Sequence record: PZ452609.1
Length of the DNA: 64,000 bases
Reading direction: 5' to 3' (one strand)
From: a phage
The translations under genes were made by a program, and so were the position numbers. Under the pieces are notes generated by a model. That model ran no database searches. It had not been told where the DNA came from and saw nothing but the letters and a program-made list of their open reading frames with translations. This document shows positions 18,699-57,384 of the stretch, in pieces; the first letter of the stretch is position 1, and every line of letters begins with the position of its first letter.

Positions 18699-18798
18699 NN
18701 NNNNNNNNNNNNNNNNNNNNNNNNNNNNNNNNNNNNNNNNNNNNNNNNNNNNNNNNNNNNNNNNNNNNNNNNNNNNNNNNNNNNNNNNNNNNNNNNNN
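18699..18798. other. 100-nt run of N (assembly gap or masked sequence)
   Basis: exactly 100 n characters. Confidence 0.95.
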
Positions 18799-26199: not shown

Positions 26200-26499
26200 T
26201 TAATCTGCCAACCTTAAATTGAAATTAACACCAAATTTTTCACACACTTCCAACATATACTCAAGAGAGACATTCCCAGTGAGGTGGATTATGTTGGATA
26301 CACGAGCTTGAGAGATACCACAAATTTTAGCGACTTGTTCTTGAGAAAGACCTCTGGATTTAATCTCTCTCTTAAAACGATGTGCAACGAAGTCTCTCAT
26401 TTCGTCTACATCCATTGGACAAATATAACTCTCCATTTCAGCCTCTCTATCAGCCTCCCAATCATCTTGTGGAGCATAAGGGTCAAAAACCTCATTCAT
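26200..26499 (-). CDS. XRE-like helix-turn-helix DNA-binding protein
   Basis: LSQEQVAKICGISQARVSNI HTH motif at C-terminus; start at 26499 gives minimal overlap with upstream gene. Confidence 0.5.
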   Translation of the reverse strand: MNEVFDPYAPQDDWEADREAEMESYICPMDVDEMRDFVAHRFKREIKSRGLSQEQVAKICGISQARVSNIIHLTGNVSLEYMLEVCEKFGVNFNLRLAD

Positions 26500-26704
26500 C
26501 TTTCTTCTTCCGTTTACGTGAAGTATCAATTAATGAGTCTATGTTTGTAGCTCTGACCTTTTCACGTTCATCATTAAGATAATCATCAAGAGCCTTTTCA
26601 ATCTGTGAATCATCTTGACAGATGACTGTAAAGACTGTAAAGCCGTCTGTATCGTCAATTATCTTACCATAACCGCTTCTGGGATGTAACTTTTTAAGAG
26701 CCAT
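26492..26704 (-). CDS. hypothetical protein
   Basis: 70 aa ORF. Confidence 0.35.
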   Translation of the reverse strand: MALKKLHPRSGYGKIIDDTDGFTVFTVICQDDSQIEKALDDYLNDEREKVRATNIDSLIDTSRKRKKKDE

Positions 26705-26705
26705 A

Positions 26706-27089
26706 TCAAATACCTGTGCAGCTTCTGTTTTCTAAGAAATACTCAACACCATACATAGCTTTTTGCATCAAATCTTCTTTAAACTGGATACGGTGGTTGA
26801 GCATCGCCTGTACATCAATATCATCATGGTGCTTCTCTTTAATATTTGCAGATTGCAGGAAATACTCTGCAAGAACGCGATATTGATAGTCAGTCACCTT
26901 ATCAGTCATCTCTGTCAAAGACTCTTCAGAAATTGGTTTTAGTAGCTCACCATTAGCTAGAGCAACACCTTTTACAATCTGACAAGTATCCTCTGGGACA
27001 CCTGATAAGTTCACATTTGGCAGTTCTGTTGCATTGACTGGTAAATTCATTGCCATAACCATTGCAGCAGCTAATAAAATCTTTTTCAT
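26706..27089 (-). CDS. secreted/periplasmic protein with cleavable signal peptide
   Basis: N-terminus MKKILLAAAMVMAMNLPVNA-TE is a classic Sec signal peptide; 127 aa, two Cys. Confidence 0.45.
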   Translation of the reverse strand: MKKILLAAAMVMAMNLPVNATELPNVNLSGVPEDTCQIVKGVALANGELLKPISEESLTEMTDKVTDYQYRVLAEYFLQSANIKEKHHDDIDVQAMLNHRIQFKEDLMQKAMYGVEYFLENRSCTGI

Positions 27090-27134
27090 AATGACCTCAA
27101 AGTTATATTAAATTTTGTATTACATTGAGTATAA

Positions 27135-27181
27135 AAATAAGCTATAACACCTGACTTGTCAACAGATTTTATAGCTTATTT
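27135..27181 (-). terminator. 13-bp perfect inverted repeat (aaataagctataa / ttatagcttattt), terminator-like on - strand and operator-like
   Basis: stem 27135-47 / 27169-81, 21-nt loop containing ttgaca on - strand; followed on - strand by U-rich tail. Confidence 0.4.
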
Positions 27182-27205
27182 GGCAGATTTTTTATAAGGC
27201 TACTG

Positions 27206-27270
27206 CCATCCTTCCATACCAAACCCGACCTTACCTCACCTTATCTTACCTTACCCCACCCTACCAGACC
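27206..27270. repeat. tandem pentanucleotide array (NNACC)x13 on + strand, nearly G-free
   Basis: atacc aaacc cgacc ttacc tcacc ttatc ttacc ttacc ccacc ctacc agacc read directly. Confidence 0.8.
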
Positions 27271-27348
27271 TCATTAAAAGACCCTCTTCAAAGACCTTTT
27301 AAAAAGGTAAGTCTCATTTTAATGTAGCTGAGACTAACTACCCATACT

Positions 27349-27428
27349 GTACCGCACCTGACCCGACCTGACCAGACCTAACATTACCGTGCCACACCGT
27401 ACCGAACAGAACACTGCCATACCTCACA
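27349..27428. repeat. second tandem pentanucleotide array (NNACC)x16
   Basis: gtacc gcacc tgacc cgacc tgacc agacc ... acacc gtacc ... atacc; each array followed by a hairpin with conserved loop ACCCTCTT. Confidence 0.75.
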
Positions 27429-27495
27429 TCACTTAAAAACCCTCTTAGAAGACTCTTAAGTGATGCTGGTGAGTACCCGTTGGTTTATGCTGCTC

Positions 27496-27523
27496 AGTAT
27501 ACTCACCAAATTTTCTATGTCAA
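27496..27523 (-). promoter_or_regulatory. near-consensus sigma70 promoter TTGACA-N16-TATACT on - strand
   Basis: - strand reads ttgaca tagaaaatttggtgag tatact; fires leftward into repeat region. Confidence 0.5.
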
Positions 27524-27530
27524 CAACTTT

Positions 27531-27677
27531 TTATATAAAAGTCCTGATAGCTATATGTGTTACAAAACAGAATATTGTGAACAAAACACCCATTGCAAAA
27601 GATGTGTCCAAAAGCTTACTTGCAATGTATGACAATACAAAGACAACCAGTATAAACAGAATGACTGTACTGAACAT
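27531..27677 (-). CDS. small hydrophobic peptide (48 aa, not in ORF track)
   Basis: MFSTVILFILVVFVLSYIASKLL... begins 3 nt after ligase stop; two hydrophobic stretches. Confidence 0.25.
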   Translation of the reverse strand: MFSTVILFILVVFVLSYIASKLLDTSFAMGVLFTIFCFVTHIAIRTFI

Positions 27678-27680
27678 AGT

Positions 27681-28781
27681 TTACTCATAATCCCTAATAA
27701 CTAGCCCTACAGGAAACTGTAAAGAACCCTTACGAGTCATCTTCTGGAACTGAACCGTTAAAGGTTTCCCGATAAACTCATCAGGATGCTCAGCAAGGTA
27801 CTGTTTCTTCTCATGAGTAGTCTTCCATGAGACATCTACAAAGACGTTAGGAAGAGTCTCTACAACGAACTTACCATGACCACGTTTATCAGTCTTTACA
27901 CCAGTCACTTTAAACTCTTCAGTGTGCATCTTCTTGTGCTTAATCAAGAAGTATGAACGGTGACAACACTCATAGAAGGAGTCTTCAGAGATTGAACGGT
28001 ACATTGCACCTTCAAACTTAACTTCAACCCACTTATCATGAGCTTCATCAAATTCTTCCCAAGAGTTTACACGACGAGACTTAACAGGGACAACTTTACA
28101 GCCATCTCCCAAGTCATTCAATGGTGAAGTCTCAATAATATCCCTACGTTCAGGCCACGTCTTAGTGCTATCACAGATGTCATACCAGTAAAACTTAAGA
28201 AGATGTCTGTCTGGGTTGTCTTCATTTTTAATCATGGAGACAATATCTTCTAAGTCCCACCCATGAGCATAAACCTCCCCGTCAAACTCATCAACGTCTG
28301 CATGGAGTCTTAACATAGTCATAATGTCAGGTGTTAGCTCAGTAGGTATTTTATAAACAGTATTCTCACGAGAATAAGCCGTGAAACTAACTGAATCATC
28401 ACCTCTTGAAATTCTACAACGGACACCATCAAGTTTTGGTTGAGCATCAGCAGGGAACTTCAGATACTTTGCATGGCTAACCTTTGCAGCATCATGAGCA
28501 AGCTGTACACCTACCTTCTCAGTATTCTGTGCAGACTCTTTTGTGTAAGCGTAACCTTTACGGTCTACTTGTTTCTTATACTTAGCAGAAACTTCAAAGA
28601 GAGCTTGCTGTTCAGCGTTACGCTCATTCTTTTTACCGATGTTCTTAGGCTCTGCTGTGTACTCTTCAAACATCATCTTGCCATTTTCTTTACCATAGGT
28701 TGTGATAACTTTGTCACCTACAGCAACACATGACCAGACGTTGAAGGAACCATCTTTATTTTGTTTGTACAGAATTGTCAT
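27681..28781 (-). CDS. lig: ATP-dependent DNA ligase
   Basis: motif I KLDGVRC (KxDGxR adenylation site); ~366 aa like T7-type ligases; start 28781 has RBS gaggt. Confidence 0.8.
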   Translation of the reverse strand: MTILYKQNKDGSFNVWSCVAVGDKVITTYGKENGKMMFEEYTAEPKNIGKKNERNAEQQALFEVSAKYKKQVDRKGYAYTKESAQNTEKVGVQLAHDAAKVSHAKYLKFPADAQPKLDGVRCRISRGDDSVSFTAYSRENTVYKIPTELTPDIMTMLRLHADVDEFDGEVYAHGWDLEDIVSMIKNEDNPDRHLLKFYWYDICDSTKTWPERRDIIETSPLNDLGDGCKVVPVKSRRVNSWEEFDEAHDKWVEVKFEGAMYRSISEDSFYECCHRSYFLIKHKKMHTEEFKVTGVKTDKRGHGKFVVETLPNVFVDVSWKTTHEKKQYLAEHPDEFIGKPLTVQFQKMTRKGSLQFPVGLVIRDYE

Positions 28782-29347: not shown

Positions 29348-29605
29348 TCACTCAATAACCGTAGTATGTGATTGACCATTTTTGCCATAGCTATAAGATG
29401 TTGTTGTTTGAGAGTTTGGGCATCTGACAACAACAATATCTCTGCTTATAGCATCACCATTGAGTTTGTAGATTTTGCAGTCTTGCATCTCTGGAGGGAG
29501 GCTGTAAGAAGCATCTTTGTTTTCATAAGATGGGTTGCAGCCAGCCAGAAAAATTACTCCAAGTGCAACCATTGCTTTCACACAACTCTTAACCTTATTG
29601 TTCAC
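29348..29605 (-). CDS. lipoprotein (signal peptidase II substrate)
   Basis: MNNKVKSCVKAMVALGVIFLAGC: positively charged n-region, hydrophobic core, lipobox L-A-G-C; GTG start with RBS gagagg. Confidence 0.55.
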   Translation of the reverse strand: MNNKVKSCVKAMVALGVIFLAGCNPSYENKDASYSLPPEMQDCKIYKLNGDAISRDIVVVRCPNSQTTTSYSYGKNGQSHTTVIE

Positions 29606-48250: not shown

Positions 48251-48404
48251 AACTTGACATGGTGGTGTGAGTCTTGATAGGCTTACATCACCTTTTTTAT
48301 TGGATGTTAGATATGGCAGAGAGTATTATTGGGTTGTTCATAGGTTCTGTCTTACTAGGGTTCTTTTTAGGACTCTCTTATTGTGAATTAAGAGGCAAGT
48401 TAAA

Positions 48405-52275: not shown

Positions 52276-54057
52276 ATGACTAAATCACTTTATGCAGTAC
52301 CAGCAGGTTTAAATGCAGATGCTTACAAATCTGGTCATGTTTACCAGTATCCTAGTGCAACAGAATACTTGATGTTCAACCTGACACCACGTAGTGATAA
52401 ATGGTTTAACAGCCCTTTAGCAATTGACGGTGTAGTGGCTTTTGGTATTCAACGTTTTGTTAAAGATTACTTGATAGACCACTGGAATGCCACTTTCTTT
52501 GAACGTGATAAAAAAGAAGCCATTGATGAAATCTTAGAAGTCATGAATGGTGTTCTGGGTAAAGATGCTATCGGTCGAGAGCATTGGGAAGCACTTCACG
52601 ACTTAGGTTATCTACCAGTTGAAGTATACGCTGTAGAAGAAGGCACAGTTGTTCCAATGCGTGTCCCGATGATTGTCTTTCAGAACACTGTTTCAGGTTT
52701 TCATTGGGTAGCAGGTTATCTGGAAGATGCTTTCTCTGCTGAAATTTGGAAGGCTTGCACCATTGCAACTATTGCATTGCATTACAAACGCATCTGTAAG
52801 AAGTGGGCTGACCTTACTTGTGACAATGACTTACATTTACCTTATCAGTGCCATGATTTTGCTATGCGTGGTATGTCCGGCTTTACTGATGACGCATTTA
52901 ACGCTGTAGGTCACTTAACCAGCTTTAAAGGGACTGATAGCTTCCCTGCTGTATACACGGCTAAACGAATCTATGGACAGTCCTACCCAATCTCTGATAT
53001 TGGTAGCTCTGTACCAGCCACTGAGCACTCTGTAATGTGTGCAAACATTGCTTGGGAAGGTGGTAATGAGTTGATTGAAGAAGAAAGACGCTTTAAAGGT
53101 GAGTTACAAACCTTCCGTCGTTTCTTAACAGAAACTTACCCAACAGGTATTGCAAGTATTGTTTCAGATACTTATAACTTCTGGAGAACTGTGTCAGAAA
53201 TCTTACCAGCACTTCGTAAAGAAATTATGGAACGTGATGGCAAACTGGTAATTCGCCCTGACTCTGGAGACCCTGTACATATTGTCACAGGTTATAAAGC
53301 AATCCACTTAGAATGTGCTAAGAAGGCTTATTACGAGCACCTAAGCAAGCTGGAAGTCAGTGACACAATGTTGAATGCTGTTCTTAACATGAAGCTTGAA
53401 AACATCAACTATGGTATTGCTGGATGGCTACTGTCAGAAGGCTACGAAATGGTTGTTGACAGAGAAGACTTTGAAGTTGCTGATACAGTGATGTTGAAGA
53501 ACGCTTATATGGTTGGTTCTGCAAACGTTGTAACACGCCCTGTAGCAGAGATTGATGGAGCTATTAAGACCTTGTATAACATCTTTGGAGGAACTATCAA
53601 CTCTAAAGGTTTTAAGGTACTGGATGAGCACATTGGACTTATCTATGGCGACTCTATCACGTTGGAACGTGCAAACGAAATCCTGAAGCGTCTGTATGAA
53701 ATGGGGTTTGCAAGCTCTAACGTGGTGTTTGGTGTAGGCTCTTACACTTACCAGTACATGACTCGTGACACCTTTGCATTTGCTGTCAAAGCAACTCTTG
53801 CAAGCATTGGTGGCAAAGAGATTATGCTTGCAAAAGACCCTAAAACAGATAGTGGTGTTAAGAAATCTGCCTTTGGTGGTGTAGCACCTATGTGGGATGG
53901 TGAGAATTTGAAAGCTGTAGATGGCTATGGATTCCAGAGCTTTGCAGATGCACTTGAACATCCAGCTTGTGCTTTACGTTTAGTCTTTAGCGACTCTGAG
54001 CAGTACGGTTACACAACTCTTGGTGATATTCGAAATAATATTGACAAGCAGCTTTAA
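52276..54057 (+). CDS. nadV: nicotinamide phosphoribosyltransferase-like enzyme (Nampt/NadV family)
   Basis: 593 aa; family assignment by overall similarity of pattern (e.g. VSDTYNFW) and by pairing with Prs-like gene. Confidence 0.6.
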   Translation: MTKSLYAVPAGLNADAYKSGHVYQYPSATEYLMFNLTPRSDKWFNSPLAIDGVVAFGIQRFVKDYLIDHWNATFFERDKKEAIDEILEVMNGVLGKDAIGREHWEALHDLGYLPVEVYAVEEGTVVPMRVPMIVFQNTVSGFHWVAGYLEDAFSAEIWKACTIATIALHYKRICKKWADLTCDNDLHLPYQCHDFAMRGMSGFTDDAFNAVGHLTSFKGTDSFPAVYTAKRIYGQSYPISDIGSSVPATEHSVMCANIAWEGGNELIEEERRFKGELQTFRRFLTETYPTGIASIVSDTYNFWRTVSEILPALRKEIMERDGKLVIRPDSGDPVHIVTGYKAIHLECAKKAYYEHLSKLEVSDTMLNAVLNMKLENINYGIAGWLLSEGYEMVVDREDFEVADTVMLKNAYMVGSANVVTRPVAEIDGAIKTLYNIFGGTINSKGFKVLDEHIGLIYGDSITLERANEILKRLYEMGFASSNVVFGVGSYTYQYMTRDTFAFAVKATLASIGGKEIMLAKDPKTDSGVKKSAFGGVAPMWDGENLKAVDGYGFQSFADALEHPACALRLVFSDSEQYGYTTLGDIRNNIDKQL

Positions 54058-57354: not shown

Positions 57355-57384
57355 TTGACAAGGGGCTTTGAAGCCCCTTAGAAT
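57355..57384 (+). promoter_or_regulatory. promoter TTGACA-N18-TAGAAT with hairpin in spacer
   Basis: -35 57355-60, spacer is aggggct-ttga-agcccct palindrome, -10 tagaat 57379-84. Confidence 0.45.

Follow-up and report, generated by a model that had tools for sequence, protein, structure and literature searches.

We describe a phage gene for a protein that is predicted to be exported, together with the promoter and palindrome in front of it, from a stretch of 64,000 nucleotides of DNA (sequence record PZ452609.1; the whole stretch is hereafter called the window). The gene encodes 127 amino acids (aa) and lies with its upstream region at positions 26,706 to 27,181 on the minus strand. Our best explanation, to which we assign a probability of roughly 55%, joins two parts. 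First, the gene would code for a Sec-exported binder or inhibitor located in the periplasm. Second, the 13-bp perfect inverted repeat ahead of the gene would form an RNA hairpin that is embedded in a promoter, here called P2, and that stops, attenuates, or processes transcripts arriving from a promoter farther upstream, called P1. The conserved cassette of ~93 nt that carries the hairpin and P2 would then be a linker rather than an operator for the XRE-type helix-turn-helix (HTH) protein encoded in the same operon.

According to this proposal, transcripts from P1 would cross a hypervariable (GGUNN)n leader before meeting one of these fates at the P2 hairpin. RNA polymerase would re-initiate at P2 and transcribe the operon that runs from the secreted protein to thymidylate synthase. 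The conserved cassette would also serve as a linker bordering a hyperplastic region, in the way that promoter-early stem-loop (PeSL) cassettes do in T4-type phages. Both features belong to known kinds, namely small secreted phage proteins and composite promoter/terminator cassettes.

The 2.2 kb around the locus match 259 phage records, mostly at 93-97% identity, and nearly all of these are Felixounavirus. Judged from these matches, the source of the window is a Felixounavirus (a Felix O1-like phage). The hosts of the matched Felixounavirus phages, which include Felix O1, wV8, and their relatives, are Escherichia, Salmonella, Shigella, and Citrobacter.

The Palindrome Overlaps Promoter P2 and Is Predicted to Fold as an RNA Hairpin

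The conserved cassette and its parts are located as follows.

27128-27220, minus strand: conserved cassette of ~93 nt, GGTATGGAAGGATGGCAG...TATACT, which holds a small hairpin (27203-27208 / 27181-27186), the palindrome, and P2
27169-27181, minus strand: 5′ arm of the 13-bp perfect inverted repeat (AAATAAGCTATAA), with an inner extension at 27163-27167
27135-27147, minus strand: 3′ arm (TTATAGCTTATTT), with an inner extension at 27149-27153, followed by the U-rich tract
27125-27134, minus strand: U-rich tract (UUAUACUCAA), an extension of the UUAUUU that ends the 3′ arm
27157-27162, minus strand: P2 -35 element TTGACA, within the hairpin loop and conserved in the distant lineage L044
27134-27139, minus strand: P2 -10 element TATTTT, after a 17-nt spacer; it overlaps the 3′ hairpin arm

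A preliminary description of this DNA had reported a 13-bp perfect inverted repeat at 27135-27147 and 27169-27181, with TTGACA in its loop, and both are found exactly there. This is the longest perfect inverted repeat (loop of at most 40 nt) within the window, where first-order Markov shuffles give a chance expectation of 0.035 for repeats of 13 bp or longer. Five more pairs form inward past one mismatch, such that the repeat reaches 19 nt at 89% complementarity and leaves a loop of 9 nt between the arms (UUGACAAGU).

The promoter sequence TTGACA-N17-TATTTT matches the sigma-70 consensus at 10 of 12 positions. P2 is annotated as a promoter, based on the consensus, in one GenBank record (phage ASO1B), which is the only such annotation found. 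The sequence TATACT at 27128-27133 was also considered as the P2 -10 element, but its distance of 23 nt from the -35 element led to its rejection. It appears to be homologous to the -10 element of the P1-type promoter described below.

In sense-strand RNA, the palindrome is predicted to form a 13+5-bp hairpin (-18 kcal/mol; z = -3.5) with a U-rich tract directly 3′, where the sequence after the stem reads ...UUAUUU/UUAUACU. The homologous site in L044, whose protein is 30-33% identical to that of the window, is AAAGGCTGTAAAATCTGTTGACACGAAGGGTTTTATGGCCTATTTTTATACC. A hairpin of -19.7 kcal/mol is predicted there too, and both the tract, now AUUUUUAUAC, and TTGACA-N17-TATTTT are kept. Relative to the stem in the window, one pair has changed on both sides from A-U to G-C, three pairs have become G·U wobbles, and three pairs are lost. 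G·U pairs exist only in sense-strand RNA; as DNA, the two half-sites of L044 now differ from each other.

The 127-aa Protein Is Predicted to Be Exported to the Periplasm

The protein gene and its features are located as follows.

26706-27089, minus strand: gene for the 127-aa protein (Felix O1 ORF87 / wV8 gp094; phrog_4332), which opens a tightly packed operon
27095-27098, minus strand: Shine-Dalgarno sequence GAGG, 5 nt ahead of the ATG of this open reading frame (ORF)
27030-27089, minus strand: signal peptide, residues 1-20 (MKKILLAAAMVMAMNLPVNA), with a predicted signal peptidase I (SPase I) cut after VNA; conserved across lineages
26709-27029, minus strand: mature 107-aa domain (12.2 kDa, pI 4.7), with predicted helices at residues 31-45, 55-86, and 93-121, and with Cys36 and Cys124

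The signal peptide was judged from the charge of the n-region, the hydropathy of the h-region, the -3/-1 rule, and checks for a lipobox, a twin-arginine motif, and a membrane anchor. The N-terminus reads MKKILLAAAMVMAMNLPVNA, followed by TE. Its n-region has KK at residues 2-3, its h-region (ILLAAAMVMAM) has a core of ~10 residues with a mean Kyte-Doolittle value of 2.7, and the predicted cleavage site between V-N-A and T obeys the -3/-1 rule. Neither a lipobox (L-x-x-C) at the cleavage site nor an RR pair is present, and the mature part carries no further hydrophobic segment (top 19-residue hydropathy 0.71).

The same signal-peptide architecture is seen in 10 of 10 divergent orthologues, and across all lineages the N-terminus keeps MKK, then ~10 hydrophobic core residues, and finally a site of the AxA type at residues 18-20. 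The mature domain has exactly two cysteines in each lineage. The signal peptide and this invariant cysteine pair are retained in orthologues of 28-43% identity, and conservation of both at identities of ~30% is strong indirect evidence for export to the oxidizing periplasm. The clear Sec signal peptide claimed in the preliminary description is thus upheld as a sequence prediction. We infer that the protein is exported by the Sec system and cleaved by SPase I, a conclusion that these features support, and that a disulfide between Cys36 and Cys124 probably stabilizes the mature protein.

Sequence and profile searches returned no relative of the 127-aa protein in Pfam, NCBIfam, or the PDB, and matched only phrog_4332, to which no function is assigned. 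An exhaustive HMMER search of 1.8 billion representatives gave six matches, five of which are phage relatives or a fragment. The sixth is marginal (E = 8e-4), covering a 34-residue stretch of a 1571-aa protein. By tblastn, the protein is present in 259 phage genomes, with at least 91% identity in Felixounavirus and 29-36% in Mooglevirus and Suspvirus. A metagenomic lineage (P0008) is more distant still, encoding a protein that is 30-33% identical within a matching gene order (secreted protein, 63-aa protein, HTH, further small genes, dihydrofolate reductase [DHFR], and thymidylate synthase). In both word-indexed and exhaustive searches of billions of proteins, family members were found only in Ounavirinae-like (Felix O1-like) phages of enterobacteria.

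Structure prediction with AlphaFold2 and a 33-sequence alignment yields a three-helix bundle with a predicted local distance difference test (pLDDT) score of 85 overall and above 90 over the mature domain, and the single-sequence model is uninformative (pLDDT 38). From the confident helical model, we predict that the mature protein, which is acidic and 12 kDa in size, adopts the three-helix fold in the periplasm. Among the neighboring genes compared, the 127-aa gene is the fastest diverging: between genera, its product is 30-35% identical, compared to values of 86-89% (ligase) and 60-79% (HTH protein). Such rapid divergence fits an interaction with a variable partner.

Reasoning by analogy, we favor a function as a binder or inhibitor of a partner located in the envelope, which might serve exclusion or lysis control in the manner of the T4 proteins Spackle and RI. 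Spackle (Sp, gp61.3), which mediates superinfection exclusion from the periplasm, is likewise small, expressed early, helical, and periplasmic, and has a cleavable Sec signal peptide. RI is also a small, secreted, helical, periplasmic phage protein, and both phages carry rIIA/rIIB as well; in contrast to RI, no holin partner has been identified for the 127-aa protein.

Membership in either T4 family was considered and rejected. An hhalign comparison with Spackle aligns the signal peptides only (probability 16%), and Spackle is absent from the structural matches. The RI antiholin has no sequence similarity to the 127-aa protein (hhalign probability 0.3%). The existence of Spackle and RI, together with a lipoprotein ORF elsewhere in the window (29348-29605), indicates that the preliminary description overstated the case in calling export unusual for an early phage protein.

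A Second Stem-Loop Overlaps Promoter P1

The upstream promoter and its repeat are located as follows.

27467-27523, minus strand: P1 promoter (TTGACA at 27518-27523, N16, TATACT at 27496-27501)
27500-27508 / 27467-27475, minus strand: P1 inverted repeat, spanning the -10 element and the start site

The P1-type promoter, AAAGTTGTTGACA-N16-TATACT, also occurs in the related loci L031, L035, L037, L175, and L177, at about positions 2414-2503. Its stem-loop encloses the -10 element and the start site, also in phages that lack P2 and have P1 directly ahead of the gene. Five unrelated arm sequences are known for this stem-loop and all of them pair; RNAalifold identifies double compensatory changes in six of the nine outer pairs. 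Stem-loops laid over promoters are a local rule at this locus.

Two aspects of the P1-type structure constrain its interpretation. It has no U-tract, so termination may not be a function that the promoter-overlapping stems share. In addition, its 5′ arm is upstream of the start site, and the structure is therefore possible only in read-through RNA or in single-stranded DNA.

An Operator Function for the Palindrome Is Not Supported

The palindrome could alternatively be a DNA operator, in which the XRE-type HTH protein, or another phage or host protein, binds the arms flanking the -35 element and autoregulates P2. Several features are consistent with such a site. The perfect dyad symmetry overlaps the core promoter, the HTH gene resides in the same operon and is syntenic across lineages, and the arms are invariant among ~45 closer sequences, in which natural variants change only loop and flank positions.

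However, the geometry is atypical for a dimer of a 99-aa XRE protein. The arm centers are 34 bp apart, with 21 bp of nonsymmetric DNA between the arms, whereas the half-site centers of a typical XRE dimer site are 10-11 bp apart. Nor is the half-site repeated in the 64 kb beyond chance: six matches with at most two mismatches are found versus 4.0 expected, and the only exact matches are the two arms themselves. Mooglevirus phages keep the HTH protein with an invariant recognition helix (ISQxRVSNI) but lack the palindrome. Moreover, the L044 half-sites differ exactly where G·U pairing in RNA persists. The covariation of P1-type arms in palindrome-less phages likewise argues for selection on pairing and not on a binding sequence.

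Given these considerations, we regard the operator hypothesis as quite unlikely. The preliminary description correctly placed a gene for an XRE-type HTH protein ~600 bp downstream (26200-26499, minus strand; its ATG is 590 nt downstream of that of the 127-aa ORF), but its further suggestion that this protein binds the palindrome is not supported by the spacing, the lack of extra half-sites, or the Mooglevirus comparison.

A separate AT-rich dyad with the consensus TATATA-N5-8-TATATA is present at 27101-27124 (minus strand), between the start site and the Shine-Dalgarno sequence. It occurs in all lineages (5′ untranslated regions of L004, L006, L007, L032, and L044), with either promoter type. 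The geometry of this dyad would suit an HTH dimer better than that of the 13-bp palindrome, or the dyad could form a small RNA hairpin.

The Cassette Resembles PeSLs and May Serve as a Linker

The cassette is present once per genome in 231 of the 259 related records (at least 95% identity) and is single copy in nearly all; the only multicopy elements are the adjacent repeat units. Felixounavirus, Suspvirus, and some Mooglevirus phages share the cassette at 100% identity, whereas their flanking coding DNA is only ~50% identical. This cross-genus identity ends sharply at the -10 element and start site. Where pentamer arrays are present in the leader, the cassette always follows them, at 71-76 nt before the ATG.

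Judged from sequence features, the cassette resembles the PeSLs of T4-type phages, where such an arrangement has been described before (Arbiol et al. 2010, PMC2839356; Comeau et al. 2014, PMC4122927). In a PeSL, a strong sigma-70 promoter is joined to a stem-loop that can extend over the -35 or -10 element, terminates upstream transcription, and mediates modular shuffling (PMC2839356, PMC4122927). Similarly, the cassette fuses a near-consensus sigma-70 promoter to a stem-loop overlapping the -35 and -10 elements. It is intergenic, precedes small genes of unassigned function, and borders a hyperplastic region in which close relatives differ by insertions and deletions; its sequence is conserved and the flanking genes differ. 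There are also distinctions. The cassette belongs to another phage subfamily, the Ounavirinae, its stem is A/U-rich in contrast to the G(n)-loop-C(n) form of PeSLs, and its promoter and terminator roles are predicted from sequence.

The palindrome might have no regulatory role and persist only as part of a recombination linker, or as a cruciform-forming site exchanged between phages. In agreement with this possibility, identity of the cassette across genera extends even to positions where Felixounavirus shows neutral variation, it breaks off sharply at the start site, and the locus is hyperplastic. However, L044 has diverged in sequence and yet keeps the pairing, the tract, and the promoter spacing, which argues for selection on the structure and not for mere hitch-hiking. 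A linker devoid of regulatory function is therefore, in our judgment, very unlikely.

Elsewhere in the window, further TTGACA promoters are overlapped by stable hairpins at ~48254, 54041, and 57355 on the plus strand, with stems unrelated to that of the cassette. Two of them have a stem that resembles a terminator and carries a T-tract; at 48254 it covers the spacer and -10 element, and at 54041 it comes after the -10 element. At 57355, a G/C-rich stem is located between the -35 and -10 elements.

Possible Termination, Attenuation, or Processing at the P2 Hairpin

The P2 hairpin shares with intrinsic terminators the order of hairpin and U-rich tract, an A-rich stretch on the 5′ side, and a position at the end of an upstream transcription unit. 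It differs in its long A/U-rich stem, its 9-nt loop, its interrupted U-tract, and a classical score below threshold.

A number of observations weigh against the combination of a regulatory hairpin and an exported binder that we propose. The stem is A/U-rich, with four G-C pairs and a 9-nt loop, and a consensus terminator scan made no call. The d'Aubenton-Carafa score, from a re-implementation of the formula, is -20 to -40 for the P2 hairpin, compared to +11 to +25 for three canonical terminators of the window genome and Felix O1 that were used as controls; one published Felix O1 terminator also scores -25 on the same measure. An IMG/VR scan with the pattern AAAATCTGTTGACAB gave unrelated matches only and no copy of the cassette, and a metagenome scan added one new P1-type variant and no new P2 variant. 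Because these scans produced no further divergent cassette, covariation in the P2 hairpin comes from one divergent lineage, and it is not significant (135 of 500 shuffles equal it). Perfectly conserved arms and loop would also be expected of a protein-binding site. In addition, the cassette is single copy, whereas PeSLs form a dispersed repeat family. Regarding the protein, its proposed function is inferred throughout, and fold searches return generic helical bundles only. Finally, literature searches found no transcriptome for these phages and no functional study of ORF87.

Given the A/U-rich stem, the missing scan call, and the low score, we refer to the P2 hairpin as a terminator/attenuator and treat processing as a live alternative. 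Indeed, "attenuator or processing hairpin" is as defensible a label as "terminator" for this sequence. The preliminary description had proposed that a terminator overlaps the -35 element of the promoter. The overlap of stem-loop and promoter holds, and is kept in L044, but the word terminator must be qualified in view of the score.

If the hairpin were instead an RNA processing or stability element, such as an RNase III site, read-through transcripts would be cut there and the upstream RNA would be left with a protective 3′ hairpin. The near-continuous duplex of ~19 bp with one internal mismatch would suit such a site, as would the poor classical terminator score. Moreover, the Mooglevirus P1-type stem-loop covaries strongly and has no U-tract, so termination cannot be the function common to both stems. 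The RNase III hairpins of the T7 early region are comparable in that they are duplexes of ~20 bp with an internal mismatch, situated between transcription units of an early operon. The T7 sites, in contrast, are not characterized by promoter overlap, and cleavage here is conjectural. A U-rich tract just 3′ of the stem is kept in the distant L044, although a pure processing site needs none. We consider a dedicated processing element unlikely, but worth keeping in view.

No Rfam family matches within 26900-27750, and the palindrome was not described in any of the literature found.

Leader Arrays and the Hyperplastic Region Between P1 and P2

27208-27275 and 27336-27423, minus strand: two (G/R)GTNN pentamer arrays in the hypervariable P1-P2 leader, corresponding to wV8 'DR_4'

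Each leader array consists of 11-14 pentamers. The pattern GGTNNGGTNNGGTNNGGT, with at most one mismatch, occurs 16 times in the window versus 0.12 expected, and all occurrences are in the leader arrays. Among ~45 related loci, 25 different arrays are found, in which position 2 is G in 84% of cases, position 3 is T in 82%, and the NN positions are free. This pattern suggests that the periodicity of the array is selected while its sequence is hypervariable. The number of arrays varies between phages, and the wV8 annotation records them as the repeat 'DR_4' only.

Candidate functions for the arrays include an RNA-protein binding array, a G-quadruplex, and a recombination substrate. By analogy, the GGUNN array (a triplet plus a 2-nt spacer, repeated ~11 times) resembles the site of ring-shaped RNA-binding proteins such as TRAP. 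We speculate that GGUNN RNA could titrate an RNA-binding protein of the host or phage, as a decoy or sponge, or could fold into two-tetrad G-quadruplexes. A bolder version of these ideas treats the palindrome as the 3′ terminator of a ~360-nt noncoding RNA that runs from P1 (start near 27489) to ~27130 and has as its body the two hypervariable GGUNN arrays with conserved hairpins between them, and treats the secreted protein as a new periplasmic family for exclusion or lysis control. We find this version rather doubtful.

Conserved hairpin units flank the arrays at 27276-27335 and 27427-27465 (minus strand), with the sequences CATCACTTAAGAGTCTTCTAAGAGGGTTTTTAAGTGATG, and GTCTCAGCTACATTAAAATGAGAC then AAAAGGTCTTTGAAGAGGGTCTTTTAAT. 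The motif GTCTTynAAGAGGGT recurs in each of these units, and the annotation of phage ASO1B labels one of them a rho-independent terminator.

The distance from P1 to the ATG falls into four classes among related phages. It is 82-84 nt in the Mooglevirus type, which has neither P2 nor arrays, ~275 nt in Felix O1, which has one array, and ~420 nt in the window phage, which has two. In the fourth class (1670-1980 nt), a pair of genes encoding 200-aa and 146-aa proteins is inserted, with array units ('DR_4' in wV8) on either side. This two-gene cassette is located at 1068-2113 of the wV8 locus (L023) and is carried by bumzen, phiSUSP1, and many Felixounavirus and Suspvirus phages; it is absent from the window and from Felix O1. 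Ahead of the insert, the small hairpin takes a variant form in which a compensatory change gives TGGTAG…CTACCA for TGGCAG…CTGCCA, and there is no P2 palindrome at this position.

Operon Layout and Neighboring Genes

The 127-aa gene forms a conserved trio with the two genes that follow it.

26492-26704, minus strand: gene for a 70-aa protein (phrog_4473), second member of the conserved trio
26200-26499, minus strand: gene for the 99-aa XRE-type HTH protein (HTH_3, Pfam E = 4.9e-10), third member of the trio

The operon continues with three small genes, DHFR, and thymidylate synthase, and the stop/start junctions between the 127-aa gene and the next genes adjoin or overlap. The 127-aa ORF is annotated as "hypothetical protein" in all matched records. 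In S. Typhi infected with Felix O1, ORF87 is positive by reverse transcription PCR, with a maximum at 25 min (PMC3185647, Table 3).

Two other small ORFs on the minus strand have features relevant to the envelope. Within the same early gene cluster, an 85-aa ORF (29348-29605) has a classical lipoprotein signal (…VIFLAGC before N) and is a candidate receptor-blocking or exclusion lipoprotein. A gene of Citrobacter phage Maleficent that corresponds to it by position alone is annotated as "membrane lipoprotein." Directly after the DNA ligase gene, a very hydrophobic 48-aa ORF (MFSTVILFILVVFVLSYIASKLL…; 27531-27677) is conserved in wV8, and the small Maleficent ORF at the matching position is annotated as "membrane protein." Separately, a run of 100 N at 18699-18798 marks an assembly gap or a masked stretch of the window.

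Implications for Felix O1-Like Phages

Felix O1-like phages are widely used for typing, biocontrol, and therapy of Salmonella and Escherichia coli, and their transcription signals and most of their early genes are uncharacterized. Neither the cassette nor the secreted protein would surprise a specialist. Nevertheless, if cassettes do bound the hyperplastic region, they would extend beyond T4-type phages the idea, derived from PeSLs, that a regulatory cassette can be a recombination linker. A linker role, if true, would also explain why otherwise near-identical therapeutic phages differ in gene content at this locus. Finally, the fast-diverging secreted protein is a reasonable candidate for superinfection exclusion or for modulation of the envelope, which would be relevant to the design of phage cocktails.

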